Below, piece after piece: positions 10,269-60,409 of a stretch of DNA of 64,000 nt. The position numbers and the translations under genes are program-made. The stretch spans positions 10,313-74,312 of the forward strand of contig CAZTRG010000296.1 of assembly GCA_964615885.1 (NCBI GenBank), written 5' to 3'. This stretch comes from an uncultured Planctomycetia bacterium. GTDB taxonomy: Bacteria > Planctomycetota > UBA8108. The notes beneath the pieces were generated by a model. It saw only the letters and a program-made list of their open reading frames with translations. It did no database searches and was not told the origin of the DNA. Numbering within the stretch: position 1 is the stretch's first letter; every line of letters begins with the position of its first letter.

Positions 10269-11278
10269 TGGCTCGTTGTCTTTTCGATCCGGCTGCGTAT
10301 TTCCCGGGCCTCACGCGCTGCCAGGGAGTTGGGGAAATTATCAAGCACAACCCGAAGGTAGATATCACAGGCGCGCAGCTCACTCTCATTGAGATAAAAC
10401 TTGGCGATCCTCAGGTTCTTTTCCCCCTCCAGCTCATTGATCTCACGAAGCTTCCCCCTGGCCTCCTCCCAGTATTCACCGCGAGGATAACTCTGAAGAT
10501 AGTTTTTGAAACGCCGGCGGGACTGCAGGAGCTTGTTCTCATCATAGACTGCGCCTCGTACCTGGAGGTACTCCGCCAGCGCAGACTTGTATTCAGCCAG
10601 CTCCTTCCACTCGCTCTCAGACATCTTCACGATGCTGTCATAGAGCAGAACGGATTCCGCATACTTTCCCTGGTCATAATAATAATTGGCCACCTCGAGG
10701 TAGGCATCATCGGCAAAGGAAAGATAGGGATTCTCCGTGACCAGGCCATCGACGGGGTCCAGCAGTATATCGATCCCGTAATCCGGTGAAGACACCTGGA
10801 AAACCTTCAACATGGACCTGGTCTTTCTCTCCTTGAGATAAGCCAGCGCGATTTCAAAGACCCTCCTGCGAGCCTTGTCGATGAGCTCCGGCGATGGGAA
10901 ATCCTCCTGGTAGACCTTCCTGTAGTACTCGAGAGCATCTTCGTAGCGACCCAGCTGGTAGCAGCATTCCCCGAGGTAGAATCGGAGGTCCAGCATCTTC
11001 GCTGCCGCAGTGGAATCGTCAAGAAACCTGAGAGCTGCCAGCGCATCTGCATAGGCCCCTGCCTCAAAGGCCTTCAGCGCCTCCATACGCACCCGCGCGC
11101 TGGAGCCCCATGCACCAGACGCAGGAAGGATCCACCCGCTCTCTGCTGTCCACCTCGTATCACCCGCTCCGTTTTCAATCCTGGGGCTGTCATCAGCCTC
11201 CGGAATCTGGGGGCTGGCACAGCCCAGCGCCAACAAAACGCACAGCAGGCTCGCCAGAGAACGACCTTTCAAAATCAT
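10265..11278 (-). CDS. bamD: TPR lipoprotein, BamD (YfiO)-like outer-membrane assembly factor
   Basis: Lipobox LLALGC. TPR pairs with the BamD-like C-terminal pattern (LRIAKFYLNESELRACDIYLRVVLDNFPNS, compare E. coli [28 protein letters not shown]). Overlaps the lptE-like start by 4 bp. Confidence 0.55.
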   Translation of the reverse strand: MILKGRSLASLLCVLLALGCASPQIPEADDSPRIENGAGDTRWTAESGWILPASGAWGSSARVRMEALKAFEAGAYADALAALRFLDDSTAAAKMLDLRFYLGECCYQLGRYEDALEYYRKVYQEDFPSPELIDKARRRVFEIALAYLKERKTRSMLKVFQVSSPDYGIDILLDPVDGLVTENPYLSFADDAYLEVANYYYDQGKYAESVLLYDSIVKMSESEWKELAEYKSALAEYLQVRGAVYDENKLLQSRRRFKNYLQSYPRGEYWEEARGKLREINELEGEKNLRIAKFYLNESELRACDIYLRVVLDNFPNSLAAREAREIRSRIEKTTSQ

Positions 11279-16500: not shown

Positions 16501-16685
16501 ATCTGTTCCTGCTCGCGCGAGAGCTCCTGGTCGGAGGCCTGCTGCGGCTGCCCCAGGGCTTCTGATGTGGCAAGCGGACACCAGGCCAGGAAACAGATAA
16601 AGCTGACTCTGCAAAGAACTAACCGATTTGGCATGATCAGATACATCTTAACCGACTGTAAGCACGAAGGCATCCCACTCCTCAT
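13542..16685 (-). CDS. Secreted 1047-aa coiled-coil protein, E/K/R/Q/A-rich, with a ~21-residue polyglutamine tract. Last gene of the MoxR/BatA-like operon.
   Basis: Signal peptide (LVLCRVSFICFLAWCPLATSEA). Long heptad-like charged segments. Q17-L-Q3 run. GKEA tandem repeats. ATGA start/stop overlap with the upstream gene at 16682-16685. Confidence 0.6.
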   Translation of the reverse strand: MRSGMPSCLQSVKMYLIMPNRLVLCRVSFICFLAWCPLATSEALGQPQQASDQELSREQEQIRAIVIKLANDMEKVAAKLEASEPEDAERLREAARQIRNQRLPDTLSQIEGMLSNKQFIEAVSSQNDAIKVIEGILSVLEASQFSEDRTGKQLEQLKKDRQIAAELKQQQERLLDKTREFLESKQNSAQLEDLQEMIRKALEMQKGLLDGKPVDQIDSEGKALDREAIESALAEAQALQKLQERVNEGIEKLPGGKESRKDQETIADAKKVLEELDGLIRQARGLTGDLRDLGSRAEELKQMAGAAKAGSPEAGQDSPGKTGKEGGNEKPSGGGENQPGKDAGKDSPGDDSPEKTEKTPGDGKEAGKEAGKETGQEAGKQGQPSEKDPGKKTEPRIRKGVSELEQARAAQEISRLKSELESRTADLQGKIQRLGKESENAELPGEARENFSAAAGKNEQAGRKIQQGDFAGAEKNQAAAVEELEKAREEISRQLKEARARNSLQTAGLEQEESRLARKASASSAQLGEQAQKSFSESAREALKRGASLFQKASQAMRQARESLSEARREQAEQSGREAGAALEQASKELQKAREGLAKRSEEEKRRDLSRKLSRKTEEAAKEADRLERKLRRKDQQEPGRLQEISRSLEQAASKMRDSAQGRRELSRKKQEEALEQLKKAEEAVEEEKKEELARLERRKKFEKEAQEQEELSRQTSQAARQSKSSGQQQRSQQLEEASRDMKKASENLEKDNPEEAEKNQEDALAKLQQQEEELRREEESLAELKREQELVSMINELTEARDAQLEINAGTAKAQESRPSGRLSRRRRASLQRLLEPLAQGEGELAQKVVSLIGRLEEESSKVFSFMLNNVSADMQQVRDLLLELETDSFTQFLQKEIVVDLERMMASLQEQLELMKRQQQQQQQQQQQQQQQQLQQQGRQPLVTILAELLMLKNLQLEINRQTGQLEDFRQSNDGQGSEQWSRTLERLHQRQGNVGRLVNELAEDFKKAQEQAGGAPEAGGEPAEEGSPEGVEQEGPEAGEDADK
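13868..13928. repeat. Imperfect trinucleotide repeat (CTG/TTG)n on the plus strand, equal to (CAG/CAA)n on the coding strand, encoding polyQ
   Basis: ctgctgctgcagctgctgttgctgttgctgctgctgttgttgttgctgttgctgctgctg read directly. About 20 units with mixed synonymous codons. Confidence 0.9.
15564..15599. repeat. Three tandem 12-bp units (ggtttcctttcc / ggcttcctttcc / ggcttccttccc) encoding GKEA-type tetrapeptide repeats in the coiled-coil protein
   Basis: Read from the sequence. The protein shows ...GKEAGKEAGKETGQEAGKQ... Confidence 0.8.
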
Positions 16686-35674: not shown

Positions 35675-38600
35675 TCAGAATCCAAACGGCAGGCAACCGG
35701 CCTCGTCCAGGCGGAAAGGCAGGCTCAGGCTCTGGAGTGACTGGCTCTCACCGGTGCCGAACTTCGACTGGAAGTAGACACGGAACCGGACGAAGCGCGT
35801 ACCCTTGAGATTCCTCGGGTCACGCACCAGGCCATTCAGCTCATCAGCCTGGCCATGGACATCAAGGCTCTCGCCGGCGCTTTCCCAGACCACGACAGCC
35901 CTCGTTCCCGGAGGCTGCTGGAAGGTATTGTAAACCACCCTGGCGCCATCAAGCATGAGGCCGTGGGTGGAAGCCGAGAAGCCCGGTCCAACGCCGAGAC
36001 GATGGATTCGAGAGACAGCTACCGATTCGACGATATCCCAGAGGAAGGGGCCCGTTGTAACGCTCGGGTTGACTCCCTGGCTCCTGATTCGCGAGGTCGG
36101 GGAGAACTCGATACGGATCCGGCCATTTGCCGCACCCCCACCCAGGCCGCCAAAGGCGGTCCCGGTAAGAGCCGGCGGAGAAGCCTGGCTGGCACGAATA
36201 TTACCCTCGTAGAGACGAATACCTGAGGAGAAGAAGGGTGGCAACCTGTTGGCCTCTCCAGCGCTGACGTCAGACTGGAAGCCGTTCTCTATCGTGATCG
36301 TGTTCTTGACCTGGAGGAAGATCGTTCCACCGGCCCCGGCCCCACCATTACCGGCAAGGTCAATCGACTGGAAGGCATCACCCCCACGGGCAAGAAGCTT
36401 GGAGGTCGAACGCAGGTAGAGGTCGTTGGCAACGATATTGATAATACCGCCACCACCGCCGCCGCCCGTTCCGGGAGCGTAGAGAGCCTCACCCTTGTAG
36501 GGATAGGTTCCGGAGATACTTCCGTTCTGGTAGGTACGGCTGACATTGGCGCTCGCGCCACCACCGCCTCCACCGAGGCCGCCGACAAGCGCCAGCCCGA
36601 TAATCACGTTGTTGAGGTAGAGGCGCTGGTCCCTGAAGTTGACCAGGTCACCGCCCTGTCCCACCAGAGAATTACGCAGGCCACCACGGCCGGGCAGGAG
36701 AAGGACGTCTCCATTAGAGCCCGCCCTCAGGTTTCCACCACCGCCGCCACCGCCACCGGACTCGAAACAGTCGATTCCACAGGTACGGCCGCCGAGGCTT
36801 GAACCTCCGGTCGACCCGGTGATCGGGGGATTCTGGATTCCAAAGGTGTTGGCCGTCTCGATGATATTGGGCAGCAGCGAGTCACCCGCATCCGAGACCT
36901 GGATATTGTTGGGGTTCACATCAAAGTTCGTGACCATTCCCCCGTCGCCACCGGCGCCACCACCGGCCCCGGGAACACCGCCAAAGCCGAAGGCCGGCAG
37001 GCCGCCACCCTGGGTAAAGCGAAGTGCACCACCGTGGCCACCGGAAGCATCGATGGTCCCGGAAATTTCAGCGTAGTCCCTGACCGAGATCCGAAGAGGA
37101 TTAGGGCCGGTCGCGCGCAGGACAACGTCCTCGTCGATAATAAGCGCGGAGAGATCCATGAAGCCCGGATTGTTATCCGAAGCACGGGTTTCCTTCACGA
37201 TATTGCCGACCGGAGAGCGCAGGGTGCTGGAGGCCGTATCAAAGACCCAGACCGAAAGAGGACGACCGGTCTGCGTGTCGCTGAGCGGAGCTCCTGTATC
37301 GGGGTCGAGACTCTGGATAAAGCGCAGGTGAACCACTCCGTCCCTGCCGCGGCCGAATTCCGGCTCTTCAGGTGCCTCGATAAAGCCGCCGTTCATCAGA
37401 ACGGTCGGATCATCTGCAGGCTGGATAGTACTTGGAGAGATGAATACCGAGGTTCCGCTCGAATGAGAAACCCTGGAACCTTCGATAGCGCGAGTCAGGC
37501 CGGTGAAGGTGTTGGCGGTCTTGCCGCTGTAGGCTATGACCTCATCGTCAATCTTCACCTTACCTGCATTCGGGAATGCCTGGGTCGACTGAACCCGGAT
37601 CGTCTGGTTTCGGTTATTGGAACCGCTGAGCGTAGAGGTCAGCCTGGTAGAGGCCTGGAGGGTCATACAGAAAGGCGTTCCGCCTGTTCCGCTCTCGAGG
37701 CGAATATAACCATCACTGCCTATTCCGCGTCCACCGGTACGATTCTGGCCATTGGAGGGACCGCCGGTACCACCGGCTCCACCCCTGACCTGGAGACTGT
37801 CACAGGTGCTTACGTCAACACTTCCGGTGGCGCGCAGGTGGATAGATCCTCCACTTCCGCCGCCGCCCGCTCCACCGTTGGTCGTTCCTGCCGGGGCCTC
37901 TCCAGGAGGCACCCTTCCGGAACCGCCCCCGCCGCCATTGGCCTGGACCGAACCGATCACAACGACTCCACCGCGTGCGGTCAGCCTCAAGGCTCCACCG
38001 CCGCCGCCACCGCCACCGCCACCGGTAGCGGCAAACTCACCGCCCGTGGTGCGGGAAAGACTGGCCCCTCCACCACCTCCACCCGACCCGGTGGTCAGGG
38101 GGGTGAGCAGGGCATTTCCTCGTATCACACCGCCAGCACCCACGCGAGGTGCGGAGAAATTGGGAATGTTGGGGTTGCCGTAATTACCATCGCCACCGGC
38201 TTCCCTGTGGCCACCACCACCGCCGGGAGCACCGGCAAAGGTAGAGTTCCGGGCCTGGTCAGGATTGATAGCCGCCGGGGTCGTTCCACCAACGCCGCCT
38301 CCATTAGCTCCGGCCATGGCCGGCTCAAGAAGACGTACAGTAGCCCCTGTATTCAACTGCATAAGAGCGCCGTCACCTCCAGCGCCGCCGCCAGCGGTTC
38401 CATCTCCACCTTGTCCACCCACCAGGGAGCCATCCGCTCCATCTCCACCATTGAGATCAAGAGCTCCCATGATGGTAAACACCGGGTCTGTATCAGACGC
38501 CGCGTTTCCACCACCGGAAACCCGCATCACAAGGGGGCGGTCCCCCTGCACGAAGACAGTGGTCTGCGGTGCAATGGTGAAGGTTGCAAAATGAAATTCA

Positions 38601-40330
38601 TCGACGGCCTCACCGGGATTGATAACCCTGTTTCCATCAGGGGTCCCATCATCGGTGAGGATATAAGGTCTTGATTCTTCGGCAATAACCGCCGGCTCGC
38701 CCTCGAGGGCAACATTCCTCAGCAGCACGTGAGAAACATCTACACGGTCAGTATCGATCAGGTAGTACTGGCCGGTGATCGTATCGGGGTCGATGAAATT
38801 ATCTACTGGCTGAATCTCGAGGTAGACCTCGGCCTCACCCTGGCCGAACTGGTAGATATCATTGGTGTTCGTCTCACCCTCCAGGAGGCCGGGGTTGTAA
38901 GGAGCTCCCCAGCTGGCATCGCTCAGATTGAGATTCCGGCCGAAATCGGTATCAAAAGACTCTACGACCTCGCCGGAACGCCAGCCGACCACTTCATCTT
39001 CAGGGCGGTCCTCGACCCAGTAATAGATAAACGAGGGCGCCTCAAAAGCATGCTCACTGAATTCGCGCTCACCGGCATCAGGAATCGGCCTCACCCTGAA
39101 ATGTACCTTCCAGTACCTGGGGGGAGTGACTCCACCTTCGATGGTCTCGTTCAGTTCCCTGAAGAGCGGGTCGCACTGGGCGTCCCACACAAAGGTCCTG
39201 CGAAGCCCGCCTGAAGGAAGGAGCCTCCGGCCGGGATATTTATGCTGAATGGTTCCGCAGGTAATCTCGAATTTTCCTTCGTTATCGGGATCCTCATCGC
39301 GTGGCTTGGCCGGGTTCCATTCAAGGTCCGGCTGGCCGACATCCACGGCCCATTCAAACTCCATGGTATAGGATGCGTCGACCACCAGCTCATAGCAGGT
39401 ATAGTCAACACGTACGGGGCCGGTTGAAACACCACTGGGAACTCTCATCCCATTGACCACCGCACCGATCACCTCGATCAGGTTTTCATTGGCCACGGGA
39501 ATCTCGACCCGGTTCGAGATACCTGCAGTACTCCTGGCAACGATTCCAAGGTTCTCGCGCGGAAGCGCAAAGGGGAAGGAAACATTGTTGTTCCCATTGT
39601 TTCCATCATTGAGAACAAAAGAAAATGACTCATAGCCGGAAGGAGCCTCGCCAGGAACAAAACCTCCCGAGTTGTTGTTGATGAAGGTGCTCGAGGTCAC
39701 GCGGACACTGTTGCCGCTGCCATCATCGATATCGATATAGAGGACATCGGAGAGATTGATTCCGTAAAGGTTAACCCTGCTGTTCTCCTGGAACCGCGAG
39801 AGCAGAGGAGTGTAGACGACGTATTCCTCATCTTCATTTGCACCAAGGGTCACCGCGTAGATCGCCGGACAGGCATCGAAGCCGACAGCGCCGGCTGAAA
39901 CTCCATGGCAGAGCAGCTCGATGTTGCCGGAGGTCACACCGGTGGGAACAATGACTTCCAGGGAAGACTCAACCGTCTCACTGTCGAGATCAACCCTTCG
40001 GTTGACCACGCTCAGCGGCATTCCGAGAATCGCTCCACCGCCGGCGGAGAAGAGCACACGGTGCTCATCGATGTTGTCAGAGAAGTTGAACCCGTTGAGC
40101 TGGATAATCGTTCCAGGGCAAAGCGGATCTTCTGCACTCCCACTGCCAACTCGCTCATAATTGAGCAGGACGCATGCGGTCAGGTCTTGCGGTTGCACCG
40201 GCTCCTGGGGCCCGAAGGGATTCGTGCCACCACCGGTATTCGACTGGTCCCAGGAGAGATCACACCCTCCTACGAAAAGAGAAACCCCCAGAAGGGCCAT
40301 AATGAAGAGGCTATTCCGATTCATGGACAC
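35675..40330 (-). CDS. Giant (1551 aa) glycine-repeat lipoprotein with IPT/TIG-like modules. Possible surface adhesin or beta-helix protein.
   Basis: Lipoprotein signal (LLGVSLFVGGC). IPT-like segment (PGTIIQLNGFNFSD). Long runs of GGxGGxG / GGGGGGG repeats (e.g. GGQGGDGTAGGGAGGDG, TGGGGGGGGGGALR). The plus-strand ORFs across this gene are antisense artefacts. Confidence 0.6.
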   Translation of the reverse strand: MSMNRNSLFIMALLGVSLFVGGCDLSWDQSNTGGGTNPFGPQEPVQPQDLTACVLLNYERVGSGSAEDPLCPGTIIQLNGFNFSDNIDEHRVLFSAGGGAILGMPLSVVNRRVDLDSETVESSLEVIVPTGVTSGNIELLCHGVSAGAVGFDACPAIYAVTLGANEDEEYVVYTPLLSRFQENSRVNLYGINLSDVLYIDIDDGSGNSVRVTSSTFINNNSGGFVPGEAPSGYESFSFVLNDGNNGNNNVSFPFALPRENLGIVARSTAGISNRVEIPVANENLIEVIGAVVNGMRVPSGVSTGPVRVDYTCYELVVDASYTMEFEWAVDVGQPDLEWNPAKPRDEDPDNEGKFEITCGTIQHKYPGRRLLPSGGLRRTFVWDAQCDPLFRELNETIEGGVTPPRYWKVHFRVRPIPDAGEREFSEHAFEAPSFIYYWVEDRPEDEVVGWRSGEVVESFDTDFGRNLNLSDASWGAPYNPGLLEGETNTNDIYQFGQGEAEVYLEIQPVDNFIDPDTITGQYYLIDTDRVDVSHVLLRNVALEGEPAVIAEESRPYILTDDGTPDGNRVINPGEAVDEFHFATFTIAPQTTVFVQGDRPLVMRVSGGGNAASDTDPVFTIMGALDLNGGDGADGSLVGGQGGDGTAGGGAGGDGALMQLNTGATVRLLEPAMAGANGGGVGGTTPAAINPDQARNSTFAGAPGGGGGHREAGGDGNYGNPNIPNFSAPRVGAGGVIRGNALLTPLTTGSGGGGGGASLSRTTGGEFAATGGGGGGGGGGALRLTARGGVVVIGSVQANGGGGGSGRVPPGEAPAGTTNGGAGGGGSGGSIHLRATGSVDVSTCDSLQVRGGAGGTGGPSNGQNRTGGRGIGSDGYIRLESGTGGTPFCMTLQASTRLTSTLSGSNNRNQTIRVQSTQAFPNAGKVKIDDEVIAYSGKTANTFTGLTRAIEGSRVSHSSGTSVFISPSTIQPADDPTVLMNGGFIEAPEEPEFGRGRDGVVHLRFIQSLDPDTGAPLSDTQTGRPLSVWVFDTASSTLRSPVGNIVKETRASDNNPGFMDLSALIIDEDVVLRATGPNPLRISVRDYAEISGTIDASGGHGGALRFTQGGGLPAFGFGGVPGAGGGAGGDGGMVTNFDVNPNNIQVSDAGDSLLPNIIETANTFGIQNPPITGSTGGSSLGGRTCGIDCFESGGGGGGGGNLRAGSNGDVLLLPGRGGLRNSLVGQGGDLVNFRDQRLYLNNVIIGLALVGGLGGGGGGASANVSRTYQNGSISGTYPYKGEALYAPGTGGGGGGGIINIVANDLYLRSTSKLLARGGDAFQSIDLAGNGGAGAGGTIFLQVKNTITIENGFQSDVSAGEANRLPPFFSSGIRLYEGNIRASQASPPALTGTAFGGLGGGAANGRIRIEFSPTSRIRSQGVNPSVTTGPFLWDIVESVAVSRIHRLGVGPGFSASTHGLMLDGARVVYNTFQQPPGTRAVVVWESAGESLDVHGQADELNGLVRDPRNLKGTRFVRFRVYFQSKFGTGESQSLQSLSLPFRLDEAGCLPFGF

Positions 40331-49376: not shown

Positions 49377-52300
49377 TCAGGCTGAACTGCTGGCTGCCAT
49401 CTCTTCCATCTTTTCAGGGTCGTAGGACTCCAGCGAAACGGCCACTCGCTTAGAGACGCCCCGCTCCTGCATGGTGATGCCATAGAGTGTGTCGGCCTCG
49501 CCCATGGTGACCTTGTTATGGGTAATAATGATGAACTGGGTGTTGGCGAGGAAATCATCCAGGAGGACGGTAAATCGCCTGACATTCGCATCATCAAGAG
49601 GGGCATCGACCTCGTCCAGGATACAGAAAGGACTGGCCTTCGATTTGAAGATCGCCAGGAGCAAGGCGATTGTCGTCATCGTCTTCTCGCCACCGGACAT
49701 CTGCATCAGGGTTCGGAGCTTCTTGCCGGGAGGCCGGGCGACGATGTCGATTCCTGCCTCCAGGATATCGACCCCCTCCTCCAGGACCAGCTCTGCACGG
49801 CCCCCTCCGAAACACTTCCTGAAGAGATCCTTGAAGTTGGTCTGAACCGAGTCGAAGGTGTCCTGGAAGAGCTGCCTGCACTTGGCGTTGAGCTCGGCAA
49901 TGATGGCCTGGAATTCCTTCTCTGAATTTTCCAGGTCCGTCTTCTGGTCCATCTGAAACTTGTAGCGCTCCTCGAGCTCATCGAGTTCATCCAGCGCCTC
50001 CAGGTTGACGTTCCCCAGCTTGCGCATCTTCTCTCGCAGCTCTCCGAGCTCATCCTGTGCCTCCACAGGATTCCAGTCAGGCAGGGGTCGAAGGTAGCGC
50101 TCCTCATCGCTGAGTTCCGGTTCCGGCTCCGGTTCCTGCTGCTCCTGCTCAGAGCCAGGAGCAGCTTCTGTTCCTGCCTCGCCTTCCGCCTCTTCCTGGT
50201 CCTCCGGGGACTCGGGAAGCGGCGGCGGCCCTGCCTCCCGCCAGTGGCGCGCCTTCTCCAGGAGGGATTTGAGATCGATCCCATATTCCTCCTCGATCCG
50301 GTCGAGGGCTGTTTCCCGGCGGTGGCGTTCCTCCTGGTCTTTCAGCTGAAGGGCCTCCTTCCGGTCGGAATACTCCTTGATGACAGCCCGCACACTCTCA
50401 CACTGCCTATGGAGGCCATCCTCTTCCCGGGAGAGAAGCTGCTCCCGCTTCTCCTTGCTCTCGAGTTCCCCGACAAGCTCGACCTCCCGGTCACCCAGCT
50501 CCATAAGACGGCACCTGGCATCGACCTGGTCCTTGCGGGTCTCGAGAATCTTATCCTTCGTCAGGCTGATGGTTCTTCCAAGGTCTTCACAGCGGGCTTT
50601 CTGATCTTCGTAGTTCCTCTCCTGGCGCTGGAGAAACTCGTCAATGTTCTCCTCCTCATGCTCCACCTTACCCAGTGCCAGCTTAGCCTCAGAAACCCCG
50701 TCTTTGGCCGATTCCGCCTCCTGCCTCAACGATTCGAGGTCCTTTTCGAGCTGTTCGATGGAGGTTTCTGCCTCTGAACACTCCGAATCAAGCCTCGCAA
50801 TCTCGCTGGAATGATCTGACTCAACCCGGCTTTTGCGCGCAATATCCCTGAGCACCTCATCTCTCTCCTGGATATTCACTTTGATTTCCCGCTCCAGCTT
50901 CTCAACCTCCCTGGCCGCCTGCTCGATCTCTCCCTCGCAAACCATAGCCAGGCGCCGGGCATCATCTGCTGAGCGCCCCTTGTTTCCCCGGGCAAGACGG
51001 AGCTTACCAAGCTTCGCCCTCAGACCCTCAATCTCCCCCTCCAGGAGGGTACACTCCCGGTCACGGACCTGGATGGACTCACTGAGCCTGTCCAGCTCAA
51101 CCCCTTCGGCAAACCCGCCCTTTCCGCTTGCCGGCGCCGAGAGCCCGCCCCAGGGTTCGAGCAATTCCCCAGCAGGAGTGACAATCCTGCAGCTACCTGC
51201 TCCGTTGCGAGAGAGGGAGAAGGCCAGGGCTACATCCTCCACCAGCAGAACATCTGCAAGCAGCTGGTCGGCGACGGATTCAAAACCCGGCTCCACCTCA
51301 ACAAAATCCCGCAGGGGGCCAAGCACCCCATCTGCCTGGGAGAACGAAACGGCTGTAGCCGGAGCAGCCGGGGCAATACGGTCCAGCGATATAATTCCCG
51401 CGCCCTCGCCATCCTCACGCCTGACACAGCTCAGCAGTTCAAACACACCCTCCTGGCCTTCGACAATCACGGCATGGTTCATCTCACCAAGGGCCACCTC
51501 CAGTGCGGGTGCATACTCATCCGGAACCCGGAAAATCGACTGGACCCTGCCATTTACCTGCGCGGCTCCGTCGAGCTCGCCGGAACGCCTGGAAAACACA
51601 GCGGAGCTGTCCTGCAGAGAATTGAGGGCCTCGAAGCGCGAGGTGTCACGGTTGAGCTCCTTCCGCATCCCCCGCAGCTTCTCCTCCATCTCCTCTATGC
51701 GAGCCTCGAAGGTTTCCATCGCCTGTGAAATTTTTTCCCGCTCACGCTCCACCTCTCCGAGAGCTCCCCGGCTTTTCTCGGTCTTCTTCTCAAGGTTCTC
51801 GGCCCCGTCCATACAACGTCGCAGGGCCTCCTCCTGCCGGCTGATGGTTCCATCGTAATGAACCTCTCTCTCCCGGAGGCTCTTGAGGCTGGCCGTGGTT
51901 TCTACCAGGAGGTTATAGGTGGCCGCGCGTTCCTGCAGCCCTTCAACCAGGCCCTCCTTGCGGGACTCAAGCAGGCGCCGCAGGTCCGCCACCTGCCCCC
52001 GGCGCAGCCGCAGCTCTTCCTTTGCGTCCGCGAGCACTGTGCGGCAGGCTTCGAGGTTTGACTGGAGGCCACCGGACTTGCTCCGCTCCTGGTGGACCTG
52101 CAGCCGTGTTCTCTCCAGGCTGGCTGCAGCCTGGTGCAGCTCCTCTTTCCGGGCTGATTCTTCCTCGATCAGCTCCACGTACCTCTTGTCGGCATGGTTG
52201 ATCTCTCCCTTGGTGCGCTCCCTGGCCAGGCGCTCCTCTTCCACCCTGTCGCGGGATTGCTGAAGGTCGCTTCGCAGCTGCTCCCGCTCACCCCGCCTGG

Positions 52301-53111
52301 ATTCGATCTGTTCGCCAAGGCGGCGCAGCTCACCCTCCTGGACCGTGATCTTCTCCAGGACATCATCAAGCCCGGTGGAAAGCTTTGAGCCCTCCACCAC
52401 AGATCCCTGGTAAGCATCCAGGGCAATACGAACCCTGAGATCCCTGATGCGGTCAGAGTAGGCCTGGTAGCGCCTTGCCTTGCTCGCCTGGGCCTTGACG
52501 CGCCGGACCCTCTTGCCCACTTCATCAATAAGATCCTGCAGCCTGCTGAGGTTGTCCTCCACCCGCAGCAAGGCCCTCAGGCTCTCCGCCTTGCGGACCC
52601 TGTACTTGGAGATCCCGGCGGCCTCTTCGAAAACCACCCGGCGGTCGGAATTGCTGGCCTGCAGAAGAACATCGATCTTGCCCTGCTCCAGGATGGAATA
52701 GGAGGTTGCCCCGAAACCTGTATCCAGGAAGAGGGTCTTGATGTCCTTGAGGCGGCAGGGCTGCTTGTTGATGAGATATTCACTCTCGCCGCTTCTGAAC
52801 AGGCGCCTGGTGACCGCCACCTCTGAGAAGTCGATATCGAAATACCTGTCGGCATTGTCAAACACGACCGTGACCTCAGCATAGCCAAGCGGTTTGCGGT
52901 TCTGGGTACCGCCGAAGATAACATCCTGCATCTCCGTACCCCGGAGTCCCTTGGGGGACTGGCTTCCAAGGATCCACTTGAAGGCATCGACTACGTTTGA
53001 CTTCCCGCAACCGTTCGGCCCGACGATCCCTGTAACGCCCGGTTTGAAATCCAGGCTCGTACGGTCCGCGAACGACTTAAAACCTACCAGCTCAAGCTTC
53101 TTCAGATGCAC
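49377..53111 (-). CDS. smc: Chromosome segregation protein SMC
   Basis: N-terminal Walker A MHLKKLELVGFKSFADRTSLDFKPGVTGIVGPNGCGKSNVVDAF. Long coiled coils and hinge. C-terminal signature/Walker B (LSGGEKTMTTIALLLAIF...FCILDEVDAPLD). Confidence 0.9.
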   Translation of the reverse strand: MHLKKLELVGFKSFADRTSLDFKPGVTGIVGPNGCGKSNVVDAFKWILGSQSPKGLRGTEMQDVIFGGTQNRKPLGYAEVTVVFDNADRYFDIDFSEVAVTRRLFRSGESEYLINKQPCRLKDIKTLFLDTGFGATSYSILEQGKIDVLLQASNSDRRVVFEEAAGISKYRVRKAESLRALLRVEDNLSRLQDLIDEVGKRVRRVKAQASKARRYQAYSDRIRDLRVRIALDAYQGSVVEGSKLSTGLDDVLEKITVQEGELRRLGEQIESRRGEREQLRSDLQQSRDRVEEERLARERTKGEINHADKRYVELIEEESARKEELHQAAASLERTRLQVHQERSKSGGLQSNLEACRTVLADAKEELRLRRGQVADLRRLLESRKEGLVEGLQERAATYNLLVETTASLKSLREREVHYDGTISRQEEALRRCMDGAENLEKKTEKSRGALGEVEREREKISQAMETFEARIEEMEEKLRGMRKELNRDTSRFEALNSLQDSSAVFSRRSGELDGAAQVNGRVQSIFRVPDEYAPALEVALGEMNHAVIVEGQEGVFELLSCVRREDGEGAGIISLDRIAPAAPATAVSFSQADGVLGPLRDFVEVEPGFESVADQLLADVLLVEDVALAFSLSRNGAGSCRIVTPAGELLEPWGGLSAPASGKGGFAEGVELDRLSESIQVRDRECTLLEGEIEGLRAKLGKLRLARGNKGRSADDARRLAMVCEGEIEQAAREVEKLEREIKVNIQERDEVLRDIARKSRVESDHSSEIARLDSECSEAETSIEQLEKDLESLRQEAESAKDGVSEAKLALGKVEHEEENIDEFLQRQERNYEDQKARCEDLGRTISLTKDKILETRKDQVDARCRLMELGDREVELVGELESKEKREQLLSREEDGLHRQCESVRAVIKEYSDRKEALQLKDQEERHRRETALDRIEEEYGIDLKSLLEKARHWREAGPPPLPESPEDQEEAEGEAGTEAAPGSEQEQQEPEPEPELSDEERYLRPLPDWNPVEAQDELGELREKMRKLGNVNLEALDELDELEERYKFQMDQKTDLENSEKEFQAIIAELNAKCRQLFQDTFDSVQTNFKDLFRKCFGGGRAELVLEEGVDILEAGIDIVARPPGKKLRTLMQMSGGEKTMTTIALLLAIFKSKASPFCILDEVDAPLDDANVRRFTVLLDDFLANTQFIIITHNKVTMGEADTLYGITMQERGVSKRVAVSLESYDPEKMEEMAASSSA

Positions 53112-53214: not shown

Positions 53215-55227
53215 CTACTCCTCTCTCAAGACCGCCGCATCCTGCGGCGCAAAAACTTCCAGGGCCCCCGCGATCAGCCCGCAGTACTGCTCCTGGCTGA
53301 TCGAGCCCAGGCTAGTTCCCACGACTCCTCCTCGGGGAACAACCTTCGTCAAATACCGGGCAAGAAGCCCCATCGATTTCAGCGGATCCTGCTCCCTGGA
53401 ACGAACACCGGAGCAGTAGAGAGCCCCGGCATCTTCAAGAGGCCGGACATTCTCCGGATACAGGCGCCCATCCATAACCTGGAGACGCCTGATCTGCCCC
53501 AGGTTGCGGCTCTCCTCAAGGACCAGGGATAAGCCGAGGCGATTCTCCTCCACCTCGAGTCTCTTCTCTAAACCGCCGATGATTTCCAGGGCCTTGTCTG
53601 CTGCGGCGCCGGATTCATGCAGCTGGGTTCCGCAGAGATAGTGGGCGCATTCATTCAGTCCCACCAGGCCGATGATTCCCGTCGCGCCCTCCTCCAGCAG
53701 TCTCCCCCCAGCACCAATACCTGCCAGCTCGCAGAGACCGGCGAAGATACTCTCCTCCCCGGAAAACACCTTCGTCAGCAAACGGGTTCTTTCACGGATC
53801 CCCTTAACCGCCAGGGCGACAATTTCATCCAGCTCAGTTTCAATACTTGCACCACCGCCTCGCGCAGAACGGTAAGCGGCCCGCGGCAGGTTGATCGTCG
53901 TCTTTCCTGCCACCAGGACAGGCAAGCGGGACCGGTCCTGCAGACGGCTGCAGGACACCGGCACCAGGTCGAACTCGATGCCTGCTTCTGAGAGCAACAC
54001 CAGCCTGGCAGCCAGGTTCTCAATCCCCTCTGCAGCTGAAGGCTGGAGCCTTATGAGCAAATGCGGAGCTTCGCCTCCCCGGCGGACTCCCCCAATGAGG
54101 GAATCAAGGAATTCCAGGTGGCCGTCCCGGGCCGTGTCCAGCTCGATGACCAGTCCGGGAGCTCCATCGGACTGCCCTGAAGGGGACAGGGGAAGACGGT
54201 CCACCCCGGGCGAAGTGAAGGGTACATTTTCAGCCTGCACCTCCCGGGACACCAGCTCCCCGATACCCGGCTCCTCCAGCGAGAGAACGTCCTCAAAACC
54301 AGCCAGGAGCCTGTAACAACGAAGCGGATTGGCCAGGTCATGCACATAAAACCTGCCGTTGCGGTGGGCTCTTGCGACCTCCGGAGACAGAACCTCTTCC
54401 AGCGAGTACTGCAGGAGCATTCTGCGGGCGATATCCTGTTCAATCTCCCTGGGAGTCGAACGCAATCCCGGGGAATTGCCGGCAGCTTCGCCATGGATCA
54501 TCTTCTCCATGTCGTATTTCGGCAGCCCCAGGGGAGCCTGCTTTTTGAGCTTGGTATCATAGCCACGCTCAAAGAGCTCGTTATCCACCAGCTCCCTGAT
54601 CAGCGCGGTCGAGATCAGCAGGATCCCCGTACGAAGAACCTTGGCCTCGACACTCGCAGCAATCTCCTCTGCTACCGCGGGGTCAAGATCGGCCTCCCTG
54701 ATGAGTGCTGCGGTTATCCTGGCCTTCTTCCAGGAAGAGACTCCCGCATCGGTTTTCTCAACGGCCGGCAATTCGCCCGGCGTCCCTTTTTCCCGGGGCG
54801 CTTTCTCCCGGCGCACCTCCAGTGTCTGGCGCAGCACCTCCCGCTTCCTGCGGTAGAGAATATAAGACTTGGCGATCTCTCCGCAGTCGGGACGTGACAT
54901 CAGCACCTTCTCCACCACGTCCTGGATCTCTTCGATGTGAGGAATGCCGCTTTCCAGCGATCCGGATTTCTCAGTCAGCAGGAAGTGCCCGACCACCTCC
55001 GCAAGCTCTCGCGCATACCCGGCGTCGGCTGCACCGACTGAAACCTGGGCGCGGTAGATTGCATCGGAGATTTTATCCAGGTCAAAGGGGACAACCCGGC
55101 TGTCTCGTTTTCGCACTTCGCGGATATTCATGATGACATTGGCCTGGGCTCTTCGCCCGGCTCGATCCTCTGCGGTACTTCGTCTTTCGTTCGAAACCCG
55201 CAACAGTGTCACACAATTAGTGGGCAA
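53215..55227 (-). CDS. ATP-cone protein with class III (NrdD-like) ribonucleotide-reductase-like N-terminal motifs. No canonical glycyl-radical motif recognised.
   Basis: ATP-cone starting at the internal Met (MNIREVRKRDSRVVPFDLDKISDAIYRA, ~55131). NrdD-like segment SPEVARAHRNGRFYVHDL (compare E. coli NrdD PEELVHAHHKGLIHLHDM). C-terminus has Cys pairs (CAHYLC, YCSG, YCG) but no RVCGY-type motif. Immediately downstream of nrdR. Confidence 0.45.
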   Translation of the reverse strand: MPTNCVTLLRVSNERRSTAEDRAGRRAQANVIMNIREVRKRDSRVVPFDLDKISDAIYRAQVSVGAADAGYARELAEVVGHFLLTEKSGSLESGIPHIEEIQDVVEKVLMSRPDCGEIAKSYILYRRKREVLRQTLEVRREKAPREKGTPGELPAVEKTDAGVSSWKKARITAALIREADLDPAVAEEIAASVEAKVLRTGILLISTALIRELVDNELFERGYDTKLKKQAPLGLPKYDMEKMIHGEAAGNSPGLRSTPREIEQDIARRMLLQYSLEEVLSPEVARAHRNGRFYVHDLANPLRCYRLLAGFEDVLSLEEPGIGELVSREVQAENVPFTSPGVDRLPLSPSGQSDGAPGLVIELDTARDGHLEFLDSLIGGVRRGGEAPHLLIRLQPSAAEGIENLAARLVLLSEAGIEFDLVPVSCSRLQDRSRLPVLVAGKTTINLPRAAYRSARGGGASIETELDEIVALAVKGIRERTRLLTKVFSGEESIFAGLCELAGIGAGGRLLEEGATGIIGLVGLNECAHYLCGTQLHESGAAADKALEIIGGLEKRLEVEENRLGLSLVLEESRNLGQIRRLQVMDGRLYPENVRPLEDAGALYCSGVRSREQDPLKSMGLLARYLTKVVPRGGVVGTSLGSISQEQYCGLIAGALEVFAPQDAAVLREE

Positions 55228-55240
55228 TGCTCAATACCAC

Positions 55241-55747
55241 TCAGTGCAGGACTTCATCTTTTAGCTCGCCCGCCACAGGGGAGGTGCAGGCGGTTGGCGA
55301 ACGGCGCAGAGGCTCAACGGCCTCGTGGAATTGTTCCACATCAGTAAATTCCCGGTAGACGGAGGCGAACCTCACATAGGCAACCTGGTCGATCTCCTTG
55401 AGGATCTCGCTGACATGCTCTCCCACCGAGCGGGTGCTGACCTCGTTGTCGTATTTCTCAAACACCTCGGTCTCAACACGGCTGGCGATAGCCTCCAGCT
55501 GTTCTTCGGAGATGGGGCGTTTCTTGCAGGCGAAGCGGAGTCCCTGCAGGATCTTGTCCCGGTTGAAATGCTCACGCCGCTGGTCCTGTTTAACCACCAG
55601 CCGTGGAGCGGCCTCAATCCTCTCATAGGTCGTGAACCTTTTATCGCACCCCAGGCACTTGCGCCGCCTGCGGATTGAATTGCCCTCACCTATGACGCGC
55701 GAATCGACAACTCTGTCGTTGTCCTTCTTGCAAAAGGGACACTGCAT
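55241..55747 (-). CDS. nrdR: Transcriptional repressor NrdR (zinc ribbon plus ATP-cone)
   Basis: MQCPFCKKDNDRVVDSR...RRRRKCLGCDKRFTTYE zinc ribbon followed by an ATP-cone. The start is taken at the internal Met (MQCPFC); the ORF track begins 17 codons upstream. Confidence 0.85.
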   Translation of the reverse strand: MQCPFCKKDNDRVVDSRVIGEGNSIRRRRKCLGCDKRFTTYERIEAAPRLVVKQDQRREHFNRDKILQGLRFACKKRPISEEQLEAIASRVETEVFEKYDNEVSTRSVGEHVSEILKEIDQVAYVRFASVYREFTDVEQFHEAVEPLRRSPTACTSPVAGELKDEVLH

Positions 55748-56015
55748 ATACGAAAGCTCCTCTGTGATTACCGCGCGATTGCCTGCAGCTGCAGGCAATT
55801 ACAATTCAACCGCCCTGTTGGACGGCAGCTCTTCACACGGACCGTCCTGGGGCCTCTCCAACAACTGGAGGACTCTCCTGATCTTCTCTTCTTCTGACTT
55901 CTCTTCTTTTTTCTTCTTCTCTTCTATCCCACTGCTGTGGGGACGGGTCCATTAGTTAACACACAACTACCTGTGGTGCAAGGGGTAGTGTTATCGGAGC
56001 GGCACCTTTTTAGGG

Positions 56016-57421
56016 TCATTTGCCGATGCAGAAACTGGAAAACACATGGGCGAGCACATCATCTGGCGTTACCTTGCCGGTGAGGTCCTCCAGGCACCGC
56101 AATGCGTCCCGCAGATCAGCAGCTGCAAGCTCAAGCCCCAACCCTTCAGCAAGAACCTCCAGGGCTCTCTCAAGAGCCCCGGAAGCCGCCTGCAGAGCGG
56201 ATTCCTGGTGGGCGCTGACCAGCAAGTCCGGCGGCTCCCCCGCCTTGAGGCCCGAATCAGAAGTTTTCAGCGCCCGGGAACGCACGGCCTCCCGCAGGCT
56301 GGAGATTCCCGTACCTTTCAGCGCCGAAACAAACAGTGCAGCAGGGTATTGCCGCTGAAGGCTGGCCCGGTCCTGCTCTTCCAGGAGATCTGCCTTGTTA
56401 AAAATCAGCAGCTTCACCCTTGAATCAAGGGCAGCGCAGGCCTCCAGGCTTTCGGCCGGATCGCTGGTGGCATCAACCAGCCAGAGAACTGCATCGGCAT
56501 ACTCGAGCTCGAAACGGGTGAGCCGCTCGACGGCAGTCCTGGTCTCAGGGTTCATTTTTTTATCGAGCCCCACAGCTGCAGCCCCTTCCGGACAGCTTCC
56601 TGCAAGATCAACCCACATCACGGAGAGCCCCGCTTCACGGGTAGCTGCCCGTACAGGATCGCGGGTGGTTCCGGCCAGCTCCGACACCAGCGCCGCCCTG
56701 CTGCCCAGGAGAGTGTTGAGAAGACTCGACTTCCCTGCATTGGGCAGGCCGGCGAGAACACAGCGAAACCCATCCCCTCCCGCCAGGCGCAGCGTGGTCG
56801 AACTCCTCAGCTGGTCCATCTGCTCCGCAGCCTCCCGGACCCCGGCCGAGATCTCTCCGGCAGCCATCCCGGGGAGGTCCTCATCAGAAAAATCGATGCA
56901 GCTCTCCAGCAGTGCAAGCGACCTGGTCAGGAGTTCTGACACCTCCCCCGCCTTCTCTCCCAGCTCACCAGCCAGGCCGCGCTGGGCTGCCCGCAGCTCC
57001 GCCTCCCCGGTGGCGCTGATCACCTGGGCAACGGCTTCGGCCTGGGCAAGGTCGATTCGCCCGTTTCGAAAAGCTCGCAGGGTGAACTCACCTGGCCCGG
57101 CCCGGCGCACCCCCTCCTCCAGGGCAAGCCTTCTTGCCAGGAGCCCCATCAAGGGGGCACTGGCCGGAAGATGAATCTCGACCATGTCCTCCCTGGTATA
57201 GGAGCTCGGTGCCCTGTAGACGACAACCCAGGCCTTCACCAGGTCTCCAGCGACCAGCAGCTCGAGCTCGACACCTTCAAATCCCCGGCATTCATCGAGG
57301 AGGCCGGGCCTCGACGCGAGCTTTTCGACAGCCGGAATCGAGGCGGGCCCGCTCAGGCGAAAGACACCACGGGCGGCGGTTCCTGCGGCTGTGGCAGAAG
57401 CGAAGATCGTTCCATCGAGCA
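56016..57421 (-). CDS. mnmE: tRNA modification GTPase MnmE
   Basis: G domain (AGLPNAGKSSLLNTLLG; DLAG). C-terminal signature FSSFCIGK. The N-terminus (M)LDGTIFASATAAG resembles MnmE's TIAAIATPPG. A GTG start at 57421 is proposed because the longer ATG ORF overlaps yidC by 190 nt. Confidence 0.85.
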
Positions 57422-57453
57422 CGGCCAGCCCTCCCTGTTCCGGCGCGATTCCT

Positions 57454-60135
57454 TCAGCGTTTCCTGCGGCGGTTCTTTTTCTTCTTCGCCGAGGTTGGAG
57501 CCGGCCTCTGTCCCGCCGACTTGTTTTTTGCCGGGTAGAGGGGCTCCTGGGGAGCCGAAACAGTGGCAGCTCCCTCCACCTCGAGATCCTCTTTGGCCAG
57601 CTGCGCCTTGATAATCTTGCTCTCAGCGATTCCGAGTGCCGCACTGGTCATGATGTAGAGCATGAAGCCGGCGGGGAAGGAATAGAAGATGACCCCGAAG
57701 AAGAGCATCATGAATTTCATCATTTTCTGCTGCGCCGCTTGCTGAGGCTCTTTCGCGGGTGGCTGCATATAGCTCTGGTTGACCAGGGTCAGGATCACAT
57801 ACAGAATCGGCAGGATGTTGAGGTGCCCGTAGAAAGGCCAGAAATTGAGGAGGCCGATAGTGTATTGCGGCCCCATAATCGCCCGGTCGAGCATATCAGG
57901 CCTGGTGAGGTCACCGATCCAGAGGAAGCTCGCCTGGCGTAATTCGATCGTGTAATCAAGACTGTAGATGATTCCAATCCAGATCGGCATCTGCAGGAAG
58001 ATCACCAGGCAGCCGAGCATCTGCTTGGCTGGGTTCACATTGTGCTTCTTCCAGAGCTTCTGGACCTCCTGGGAGTATTTCATACGGTCCGCGCCGTGTT
58101 TCTCCTGCAGGGCGTCCATCTCCGGCTTGATCTTGCCCATCACCTTGCCCATGCGCATCATGCCGCGCTGGTTTTTACGCGTGATCGGGTGCAGGCAGAT
58201 CTTGACGAGAACGGTCAGCAGGATGATGGCGGCCCCCCAGCCCCCGGTGATCCCATGCAGGAGGTGAAGGATCCCCATGAAAAACTTGATCAGGCCGCTT
58301 GTCATGCCCAGGTCATTGGCCCCATCCAGGTTCAGCCGGTCACCCGCTTTTATGAAATCACTGAAGCGGGGCCCCAGGTAGAGTCCGAACTCGATGGTCT
58401 GCGTCTTCTTTACCGGCAGCCTGCGCCGGCACTTGAACGCTGCCTCAAAGCTCTTGCGCTGCTCAAGGGCTTCCTTCAGTTTTGGATCTTTTACTGTTTC
58501 CAGCGGGTAGGGAATCGCAGCGACATGCAAACCCTCAACCCCTTCATCGAGGGGCCTCTCCCCCCTGGGAAACATAAGAGCTGTAAAGTAGGAATTGACC
58601 GTCGCCACCCAGGCGTAGCTGTCCTTTTTATCAAGGTTCGGGATCTCATCCGGATCTTTAACGCGAGCTTCGGCGCCTTCGCTGTTGGCGTAGTTGGTCG
58701 CCCAGGCAAACTGCATATCAAGGCCAACCCACCTTTCCGATGTAGTTGAAATGGCGCAGGGGCCATAGATCCTGAAGGGGAACCCCCTGATCGTCTTGTC
58801 CGATGTGTTGGTTAATTCAATCGTGACGTGGAGCAGGCGGCCGTCTGCATAAGCCGGTGCTTCACCAAGCACCCCGGAGAAATCTCCGTCGCCAGCAGGA
58901 GAAATTTTCTTACGGACAAGAATTTCGCTGCCCTCGAACCGGACCAGCTTCTCAAAGACAATCTCCCCGGGCTGATCCCCGCTCTGAACAATCTTCTCGC
59001 TCCAGGGGCCGCTCCAGCCATCAGCCAGGTCATCCGCAGGCTTTCCCGAAAGGGAACCCATCTCCAGGAGAATACGGCCGGCCTTTCGCTCCAGGAGAAG
59101 CGGTTGGTTTTCGCGGCCTTGATCTCCCTCCACCGCAGTCCATGTGTCCAGGAGGGTGACACCCGCGATGCCCCCCCTCTCAGAATCAACAGCTACCTTG
59201 AAGCGGTCGGGAACAAAGTCTTCCCAGGTTCTGTTGATCCTGAAAAGCTCTCCACCGATCCCATTGTCAGCGTAATTGATCATCTGCCCTGGCGCACTGC
59301 TGCCAAAGCTGAGATCAAAAGTGACCTCGCTGTCCCCATCGGCCAGCCCTCCCTCCAGGGCTATACCTTTTGCATCGGCCACTGCAGCCTCAGCCTTTTC
59401 CTCCACCGACAGGACTGCCAGGCGGTCAGACTTGCGCAAGGCAACCCATTCGGCCTCACCTTCGGTGCGCCCGCCCGGTTGCGCCGGGTCGAAGGCCCAG
59501 CTCCTGACCTCACCCTTCACACGGCTCGCCGCAATAACCCGGTCCCCTTCAGCTGAAAAAGATGGGCCATGAATGCGGTAGCGCAGGGGCTTCTCCAGGG
59601 GCTCGCCGCCGGCACCTTTGAAGGTCAGCTCAACGCTTAATTGCTGGATGTCATCTGCAACGGCATCGTCATCGGTGATCACCCTCGTGATCGTATAGGC
59701 ACCCGCCTTCCCCTCATCTTGCCAGACGTTCTTTTCAGGAGCCTTGTCTTCCCCCTGGAAATTCACCGGCTCGAAACCCGCAGCCCCCTCAATGCTCAAA
59801 CCCGCCGCACCGGCAGAGCCTGCAAGCTCTTTGCCGTCCTTGAGGAGCCTCCCCTCCTTCACCTCGATTCCGGCAGCCGTAGATGCGGGCTTCTCCGGTT
59901 CAGCGGGCTCAGTAAGCTCCCCAGGCTTCTGAGGCTTCTCCGAAGGAGCTTCACCGGGTTTTCCGGGCTTCAGCTCAGGCTGGGCAGGATCTTTCGCAGC
60001 GGGCTTCTTATTCCCACCCGCCAGGTTCGCTTCTTCCTTTTGAGCGTCCTTCTCCGCCGGCTTGGGCTGCAACGAAACCCAGAAAACCATCAGGGCGGCG
60101 GAACAAATGAAGGCAAGTATGTAGCGCGGTAACAT
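57454..60135 (-). CDS. yidC: Membrane protein insertase YidC, 893 aa, with an unusually large periplasmic domain
   Basis: N-terminal TM1. ~600-aa periplasmic region. C-terminal Oxa1 core (GWGAAIILLTVLVKICLHPITRKNQRGMMRM...MPIWIGIIYSL...). Lys/Arg-rich tail. Conserved yidC-mnmE order. Confidence 0.8.
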   Translation of the reverse strand: MLPRYILAFICSAALMVFWVSLQPKPAEKDAQKEEANLAGGNKKPAAKDPAQPELKPGKPGEAPSEKPQKPGELTEPAEPEKPASTAAGIEVKEGRLLKDGKELAGSAGAAGLSIEGAAGFEPVNFQGEDKAPEKNVWQDEGKAGAYTITRVITDDDAVADDIQQLSVELTFKGAGGEPLEKPLRYRIHGPSFSAEGDRVIAASRVKGEVRSWAFDPAQPGGRTEGEAEWVALRKSDRLAVLSVEEKAEAAVADAKGIALEGGLADGDSEVTFDLSFGSSAPGQMINYADNGIGGELFRINRTWEDFVPDRFKVAVDSERGGIAGVTLLDTWTAVEGDQGRENQPLLLERKAGRILLEMGSLSGKPADDLADGWSGPWSEKIVQSGDQPGEIVFEKLVRFEGSEILVRKKISPAGDGDFSGVLGEAPAYADGRLLHVTIELTNTSDKTIRGFPFRIYGPCAISTTSERWVGLDMQFAWATNYANSEGAEARVKDPDEIPNLDKKDSYAWVATVNSYFTALMFPRGERPLDEGVEGLHVAAIPYPLETVKDPKLKEALEQRKSFEAAFKCRRRLPVKKTQTIEFGLYLGPRFSDFIKAGDRLNLDGANDLGMTSGLIKFFMGILHLLHGITGGWGAAIILLTVLVKICLHPITRKNQRGMMRMGKVMGKIKPEMDALQEKHGADRMKYSQEVQKLWKKHNVNPAKQMLGCLVIFLQMPIWIGIIYSLDYTIELRQASFLWIGDLTRPDMLDRAIMGPQYTIGLLNFWPFYGHLNILPILYVILTLVNQSYMQPPAKEPQQAAQQKMMKFMMLFFGVIFYSFPAGFMLYIMTSAALGIAESKIIKAQLAKEDLEVEGAATVSAPQEPLYPAKNKSAGQRPAPTSAKKKKNRRRKR

Positions 60136-60409
60136 TTGCAGGAAGACCCGTTAACCAGTTCCATAAAATCAGCAGGAGCAACAAACAATAAAGTGTTGCA
60201 GAGGAAAGTCCACCCCTGCATTCACACTTTGTCCCGGCAATAGAAAAAGGGAACGGGCCGGGCCATTTCCGCGTTCACAAGTCCCCTCTGTAAAAAGAGA
60301 TCTGGCGAACCGCCGGAGAATCCCCGGGTTAAAAACCAGGCGGGTAAATAGCGCCGGTATCGACTGCGGAATGAGCGCCAGGAAACGCTACGGTCCCCGA
60401 GGAGTTGCC

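Follow-up and report, generated by a model that had tools for sequence, protein, structure and literature searches.

In a 64-kb stretch of DNA from a marine planctomycete (an uncultured Planctomycetia bacterium; positions 10,313 to 74,312 of contig CAZTRG010000296.1), which was analysed as a whole and is called the window here, the gene of the repressor NrdR is followed directly by a gene whose product is derived from the class III ribonucleotide reductase (RNR) NrdD and is very probably a dead enzyme kept under selection. The protein combines homology to an enzyme with the loss of catalytic residues and with purifying selection, which are the marks of a pseudoenzyme. It represents a family that is real, conserved, uncharacterised, and often misannotated. 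We propose that it is a non-catalytic, ATP/dATP-sensing descendant of nrdD that acts in the circuit of NrdR and deoxyribonucleoside triphosphate (dNTP) supply, a reading to which a probability of about 0.5 is assigned. RNRs and NrdR exert central control over the supply of DNA precursors, and both are antibacterial targets.

Domain Architecture and Predicted Fold

The gene and the parts of its product lie as follows.

53215..55131, minus strand: gene of the NrdD-derived protein, a very probable pseudoenzyme of 638 amino acids (aa) from ATG 55131
54820..55122, minus strand: ATP-cone 1, residues 4-104 (Pfam ATP-cone 5-98)
54532..54771, minus strand: ATP-cone 2, about residues 121-200 (second Pfam ATP-cone stretch)
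54307..54459, minus strand: N-terminal core helices and first barrel strand, with the HxHD remnant YVHD at residues 262-265
53917..54306, minus strand: barrel middle, shortened and fast-evolving, residues 276-405, with gaps relative to genuine NrdD
53302..53916, minus strand: second barrel half, residues 406-610, with the NrdD-like motifs NLPRAAYRS, GLNEC, LEES, and GVR..DPL

The start at ATG 55131 agrees with the N-termini of relatives, while an alternative start at TTG 55227 would give 670 aa. Pfam recognizes the ATP-cone in two stretches (85.4 bits) and the NRDD domain at residues 409-541 (67.8 bits; domain cutoff 26.2), the latter match spanning only positions 280-413 of the 562-position profile, about a quarter of the model, versus positions 1-561 in the genuine NrdD P0111. 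The NCBIfam equivalogs of NrdD all remain far under their cutoffs (TIGR02487, 64.5 against 326.35; NF005497, 85.7 against 764). The models of NrdJ and NrdA match solely in the ATP-cone region, residues 1-110, and an assignment to class II (NrdJ) was rejected on this ground, with the predicted fold checked as well. Thus, the profile searches, which a preliminary description of this DNA had named as the means of exposing an ordinary RNR, neither placed the protein in NrdJ nor recovered an intact glycyl-radical domain.

The fold, which is predicted with confidence, is still that of NrdD, and the model contains the ten-stranded alpha/beta barrel of RNRs and glycyl-radical enzymes. Pfam recognizes neither a Zn ribbon nor any other DNA-binding domain. 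The preliminary description had credited the protein with its own ATP-cone, and the cone is present, but there are two rather than one; the class III RNR-like segment that it had noticed, 'ARAHRNGRFYVHDL' at residues 253-266, corresponds to the remnant of the HxHD region. The catalytic Cys of strand beta-A is replaced (RCYRLL), the region of the specificity-site hairpin is deleted from the barrel middle, and the finger loop is shortened to residues 392-404, 'VSCSRLQDRSRLP'. The second barrel half, in which the family profile aligns to residues 444-605 of Prevotella copri NrdD (PcNrdD), ends short of both Zn ribbon and glycyl loop.

Loss of the Catalytic Machinery

Functional residues known from PcNrdD (PMC11226230) were mapped onto 56 family members aligned with 10 genuine enzymes. 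The protein was also compared with genuine two-cone NrdDs of Planctomycetota, such as P0111, which has 812 aa, an ACCRL finger loop, two CxxC pairs, and the glycyl motif RIVGY. The protein of the window ends about 130 residues before genuine NrdD and therefore has no Zn ribbon, the four C-terminal cysteines of which are missing, and no glycyl loop; a further 100 residues or so are gone from its first barrel half. When the 120 best relatives from the database were scanned for glycyl motif, Cys loop, and Zn ribbon, they split cleanly: the NrdDs of 800 aa carry these motifs, and 57 clusters carry none of the three. Within the family, the functional positions fared as follows.

Radical Gly, the Tyr after it, and two Zn cysteines: gapped in 56 of 56
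Remaining two Zn cysteines: gapped or replaced
CCR of the finger loop: gapped or replaced across the family
Beta-A Cys: Arg in 44 of 56
Beta-6 Asn: Lys in 49 of 56
NxN of the substrate flap: both Asn lost
HxHD, first His: kept in 14 of 56
HxHD, second His: kept in 56 of 56
HxHD, Asp: kept in 4 of 56; present in the window protein (YVHD)
Glu of the PAE loop: lost

A glycyl-radical module or an activase encoded elsewhere in the window was considered and rejected, since none was found there: RxxGY occurs neither in the protein, whose C-terminus had already been described as devoid of a glycyl-radical signature, nor in any open reading frame (ORF) of at least 50 aa in the six frames of the whole 64 kb; tblastn searches of the window with planctomycete NrdG, in keeping with the earlier remark that no nrdG lies nearby, and with two portions of genuine NrdD, the middle and the C-terminal one, gave no match.

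It has nonetheless to be asked whether the protein could still be an active reductase that obtains its radical from a glycyl radical protein acting in trans, from adenosylcobalamin, or from another source. Such activity would find some footing in Cys394, which stands in the shortened finger loop ('VSCSRL'), aligned near the ACCRL loop, and is shared just with the marine relatives closest to the window protein, and in the His and Asp that the window protein keeps as YVHD. Most of the family, however, does not have Cys394; gone, too, are the specificity-site region, the NxN flap, and three single residues, the beta-A Cys, beta-6 Asn, and PAE-loop Glu. In addition, neither a glycyl motif nor an activase is encoded in the window and class II models match the cone only; residual catalysis is thus hardly credible. 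The divergent but working class III or class II RNR that the preliminary description had entertained is not borne out by these losses, which extend to the glycyl loop, the Zn ribbon, the Cys residues, the flap, and the specificity region.

Purifying Selection

The ratio of nonsynonymous to synonymous substitution rates (dN/dS), calculated between the gene of the window and five relatives, is about 0.15-0.21 overall and differs along the protein.

Cone 1: 0.05-0.11
Cone 2 and first core helices: 0.06-0.11
Shortened middle: 0.27-0.68
Second barrel half: 0.15-0.21

Of the loci read, 22 have a gene devoid of glycyl motif, Cys loop, and Zn ribbon alike, and its reading frame is open in all 22. At identities of 36-83%, the family retains 34 invariant columns, which include the barrel residues H264, N414, E540, D554, Y572, and R577. 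A functionless relic, either an nrdD pseudogene that happens to be open or a product translated merely to support the expression of its neighbors, would account for a protein that is useless as an enzyme and for a middle third that evolves fast and varies in length. Yet the low dN/dS values, which are lowest in the cones, the 56 clusters with their invariant columns and without a frameshift or stop in any locus, and the confidently predicted fold make a relic highly improbable. Both the relic and the residual enzyme are poorly compatible with the data on selection and on residue loss.

Gene Order and Descent from nrdD

On the minus strand of the window the order is yidC, mnmE, nrdR, the NrdD-like ORF, and smc; mnmE and smc as flanking genes and nrdR directly upstream of the NrdD-like ORF are found as the preliminary description gave them. 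A scan of species-representative genomes yielded 80 loci, of which 17 (L001-L017), all from metagenome-assembled genomes (MAGs) of Planctomycetota from marine, groundwater, and sediment sources, share the order nrdR, NrdD-like gene, smc. In nine of them (L001-L009) mnmE precedes nrdR, and yidC precedes mnmE wherever the contig reaches so far, as in the window. The triad, which constitutes the conserved unit, recurs in L056 and in the digester-derived L081-83, where nrdR and the NrdD-like gene overlap by 17 nt. At every family locus for which upstream DNA is available, nrdR adjoins the gene. The family comprises 56 clusters from Planctomycetota, all of which fall into one clade of a neighbor-joining (NJ) tree with no genuine enzyme inside it; no cultured member was found, all sequences being from MAGs or metagenomes.

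The place immediately after nrdR is also that of the genuine two-cone nrdD in Planctomycetota, Omnitrophota, and others, where nrdG comes next; most genuine nrdD genes have nrdG as a neighbor. In locus L047 the order is nrdR, nrdD (with ACCRL and RIVGY), a glutaredoxin-like gene, nrdG, two ORFs, and smc. In the family loci the gutted gene fills the slot of nrdD, nrdG is gone, and smc comes directly next; no nrdG was found within up to 10 kb on each side in L001-L017. The gene is thus an in-place descendant of nrdD in the slot of an ancestral nrdR-nrdD-nrdG...smc arrangement. Genuine two-cone NrdDs (P0111; L047, 8507-10939) share with the protein both this slot and the predicted fold, with about 46% identity over the first 270 residues, which hold both cones and the first core helices, and about 27% over the second barrel half. 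Unlike them, the protein has no glycyl loop, Zn ribbon, CCR loop, beta-A Cys, beta-6 Asn, or NxN flap, and its locus, unlike their operons, has no nrdG and no NrdR boxes upstream.

The constant proximity of smc bears on another explanation, in which the protein has acquired a function unrelated to RNR control, with the cone serving as an input of energy or dNTP status to another process, such as chromosome handling with smc or purine metabolism, or with the barrel pocket holding a new ligand. This would fit smc being always directly downstream, the occurrence of members of a sister subfamily beside guaA/guaB and beside dnaA, and the invariant barrel residues. The proximity of smc is ancestral, however, and is already seen at genuine nrdD loci, and the invariant barrel residues are conserved in genuine NrdD too and look like relics of the fold and the phosphate loop, so that such a change of function is considered unlikely.

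The ATP-Cones

Cone 1 is predicted to be a functional ATP/dATP site of the type that holds two nucleotides. The PDB entry that it matches best by sequence is 5olk (E = 4.6e-11), in which the cone of L. blandensis NrdB holds two dATP. In PcNrdD the two nucleotides are held by K7, R8, D9, R11, Y83, R87, and R91 (PMC11226230), whose equivalents in the window protein are K8, R9, D10, R12, Y93, R97, and R101, and all seven residues are kept in at least 53 of the 56 family members. A match to PF03477 together with intact contact residues points to an activity site, and binding of ATP or dATP by cone 1 is accordingly judged probable. Cone 2 is degenerate, has no KR motif, and is probably not a nucleotide site. 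It is nevertheless the most conserved stretch, including IRELVDNELFERG, with invariant columns from R179 to L186, and it is a region common to the window protein and genuine two-cone planctomycete NrdDs. The other possibility raised in the preliminary description, a regulator that has no catalysis and carries its ATP-cone on an RNR scaffold, is supported by these results, given that the predicted fold is that of NrdD, that selection is strongest on the cones, and that the contact residues are intact.

A functional-looking cone on a retained RNR-type scaffold might also serve as an allosteric subunit in trans for a working RNR, for example a class II NrdJ or a class I enzyme that has no ATP-cone of its own. 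The dead NrdD would then dock on the active enzyme and confer inhibition by dATP or activation by ATP, as the cone of L. blandensis NrdB does, and that the closest cone by sequence is this NrdB-borne one speaks for such an arrangement. Against it, an RNR gene adjoins neither in the window nor at any of some 25 loci, and dimer interfaces of class III enzymes differ from those of classes I and II, which leaves this explanation quite unlikely. None of the ten largest other ORFs of the window encodes an RNR, which is in line with the earlier statement that the NrdD-like gene is the only RNR-like one associated with nrdR in the window.

NrdR and the Sequences around Its Gene

55241..55747, minus strand: nrdR, a canonical repressor with Zn ribbon and ATP-cone, 168 aa
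55190..55262, minus strand: near-invariant block covering the last nrdR codons, the stop, and the start of the spacer, including TTG 55227
55912..55996, minus strand: conserved block between mnmE and nrdR, with two hairpins and then a purine-rich tract

The nrdR product scores 175.9 bits with TIGR00244 (cutoff 124.65) and also matches PF22811 and PF03477. Its likely start is ATG 55747, which has GGAG before it, in preference to TTG 55798, from which the preliminary description had begun the gene. In S. coelicolor NrdR the DNA is contacted by R12, D15, R17, R26-29, and R37 (PMC9110341), and comparison with the translation reveals that the NrdR of the window holds all of them.

NrdR boxes (acaCwAtATaTwGtgt) had been suggested as a feature to look for between nrdR and the NrdD-like gene (55132-55240) and upstream of nrdR, and none is present in either place, whether up to three or up to four mismatches are allowed. 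The lone match in the window, at 60181-60196 (ACACTTTATTGTTTGT, three mismatches), lies 46-61 bp upstream of yidC and is at chance level, with at least one match in 18 of 100 shuffles. At up to three mismatches, no box was found in the 22 loci with a dead nrdD; two of them have a single four-mismatch match each, overlapping the start of nrdR. Boxes lie upstream in 17 of 22 genuine nrdR-nrdD loci, and some of these are paired, 31-32 bp apart.

Canonical boxes before nrdR, genuine nrdD: L018, L020, L022, L024, L027-L029, L031-L033, L035, L038-L041, L077
Boxes missing, dead nrdD: L001-L017, L056, L079, L081-83, and the window

The dead-NrdD operon thus seems to have left NrdR autoregulation, which in itself neither backs nor excludes a partnership at the protein level.

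The block at the junction of nrdR and the NrdD-like gene, of about 70 nt, has four variable positions among 10 lineages, and the synonymous sites of the flanking genes are saturated (synonymous rate 1.4-1.9). A 3-nt indel downstream of it preserves the frame of a possible 32-codon extension from TTG 55227. The block between mnmE and nrdR keeps its sequence in eight lineages, and the purine-rich run GAAGAGAAGAAGAAAAAAGAAGAG lies just downstream of it. An RNA element at the junction or upstream of nrdR was considered and rejected: Rfam gave nothing in either region at the gathering threshold or at E <= 1, the junction folds no better than shuffled sequences (z = -0.6), and covariation in the block upstream of nrdR is negligible (one pair).

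Proposed Role in the NrdR Circuit

In the proposed mechanism, cone 1 would bind ATP or dATP and thereby change the oligomeric state or the contacts of the protein, by analogy with the ATP-cones of RNRs and NrdR. The remnant barrel would serve as a dimer or docking scaffold and may still hold a nucleotide triphosphate by means of its LEES loop and the His that is left. As output, the protein would modulate NrdR, as co-factor or antagonist through contacts between cones, and hence the working RNR genes. In PcNrdD (8p23) the cone acts on the flap and the glycyl radical domain, which it renders ordered or disordered (PMC11226230); since both of these targets are gone in the present protein, its cone must signal elsewhere. 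The NrdR circuit is favored as the destination because the two genes stay together and sometimes overlap, because no promoter or terminator consensus was found between them in a scan of the window, because NrdR itself acts by cone-cone oligomers (PMC9110341), and because natural fusions, described below, have the NrdR ribbon and cone in place of cone 1 of NrdD. NrdR is likewise an ATP-cone protein of the same operon and senses ATP and dATP; the present protein differs from it in having no Zn ribbon or other recognizable DNA-binding domain. Action specifically through the regulation of NrdR or RNR is held more tentatively than the proposal as a whole.

Several points weigh against the proposal. 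Nucleotide binding, oligomerization, and contact with NrdR are predictions drawn from sequence, as are the partner and the direction of the effect. The adjacency of nrdR is inherited from the nrdR-nrdD operon and is no proof of a new functional link, L084, a member of the sister subfamily, has no nrdR nearby, and the NrdR boxes of most genuine operons are missing at all dead-NrdD loci. A working RNR of the hosts was not seen in the window or in the loci read. Finally, the tree is an NJ tree without support values, in which long-branch effects are possible.

RNR subunits that are retained without catalysis for another role are known from eukaryotes and their viruses. In yeast, Rnr4 is an inactive R2 subunit. 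The herpesviruses have inactive homologues of the RNR large subunit, of which M45/vIRA of murine cytomegalovirus (MCMV) has been described as a "catalytically inactive ribonucleotide reductase" homologue (PMC12845177). Both differ from the present protein in belonging to class I, and their roles differ too, that of M45 being unrelated to nucleotide sensing and that of Rnr4 being cofactor assembly. No example of an inactive RNR homologue from bacterial class III was found in the literature searched. If the proposal holds, the protein would be the first bacterial RNR pseudoenzyme, and an ATP-cone would be able to signal beyond a glycyl-radical domain or a DNA-binding ribbon.

Radical-Domain-Less Relatives of NrdD

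The family belongs, as a single branch, to a large superfamily of NrdD relatives that lack the radical domain and are uncharacterised. An exhaustive profile search of 1.84 billion representatives returned 790 proteins at E <= 1e-30; among the 140 top representatives that the other searches had not returned, 119 have neither glycyl motif nor Cys loop nor Zn ribbon. Several subfamilies are discernible, one of which is a large group of about 760 aa from Hydrogenedentota and a Nitrospiraceae MAG. The Pfam NRDD match never passes position 500 of 562 in five radical-domain-less relatives, one of which, P0156, gives no match at all.

Further radical-domain-less NrdD-like genes and proteins: L045, 4378-6783; L078, 3918-6251; L079, 6049-8400; L084, 8001-10292; L085, 8001-10295; P0131-P0270

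In the sister group, nrdR lies upstream in L079 and L085, the latter with neighbors of aerobic respiration; the gene of L084 is the one beside guaA and guaB, and another member is the one beside dnaA.

The names of these proteins in the databases include "anaerobic ribonucleoside-triphosphate reductase", "NrdR family protein", and "hypothetical protein"; some of the names are correct, and the wrong ones imply an active reductase. Hundreds of entries under the first of these names cannot be reductases, so that a metabolic reconstruction is in error where it takes them as evidence of anaerobic dNTP synthesis. In the literature searched, an inactive or truncated NrdD is described nowhere save in one line of a table on Chloracidobacterium, an "NrdD-like paralog ... 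(no NrdG)". Like the gene of the window, this is an activase-less NrdD-like gene, in a host that uses other RNRs; unlike it, the paralog is a bare table entry with no analysis and is from a different phylum.

In a wider and rather doubtful generalization, such proteins would amount to a large class of ATP/dATP sensors in bacteria that has been overlooked. They would have arisen repeatedly when class III RNR fell into disuse and would partner NrdR or the active RNR in setting dNTP supply. Were this the case, the class would add a further protein layer to RNR regulation, and the repeated, stepwise loss, of the glycine first and of the Zn ribbon and Cys loop thereafter, would imply that two-cone NrdD was regulatory while still an enzyme.

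Two-cone NrdDs in which the glycine of RxxGY is missing although CCR loop and Zn ribbon are in place were observed in 16 clusters, including Ca. Scalindua and Brocadiia; an example is 'YGIKKRDSHDKINNW' as compared with 'YGITRIVGYFSRINNW'.

Glycine-less clusters: P0054, P0060, P0066, P0073, P0076, P0077, P0080, P0083, P0084, P0093, P0097, P0102, P0104, P0113, P0115, P0117
Glycine-less NrdD loci: L026, 5820-8366; L023, 8507-10909

They occupy at least four separate clades of the NJ tree, which implies at least four separate losses in otherwise intact, nrdR-linked NrdDs, and in L026 nrdG still lies about 400 bp downstream. The repeated loss of the glycine with the gene retained hints at a role of the nrdR-linked NrdD lineage that is independent of catalysis.

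Fusions of NrdR and NrdD in a single ORF were seen in L032 (8249-10957; an Aenigmatarchaeota MAG) and in P0163 (893 aa). In both, the Zn ribbon and cone of NrdR are joined to cone 2 and to an NrdD that is complete, CCR, Zn ribbon, and glycine included, so that the NrdR cone stands at the position of cone 1 of NrdD. In L034 (1-3156), an NrdD ORF of more than 1050 aa carries a long intein-like insertion after the "SQNAFSRGGQ" region.

Other Genes of the Window

57454-60135, minus strand: yidC
56016-57644, minus strand: mnmE
49377-53111, minus strand: smc, directly downstream of the NrdD-like gene

Four large ORFs of the minus strand, of 799-1551 aa, match no Pfam family at E <= 1e-5; they lie at 13542-16685, 16682-19081, 22932-25469, and 35675-40330.

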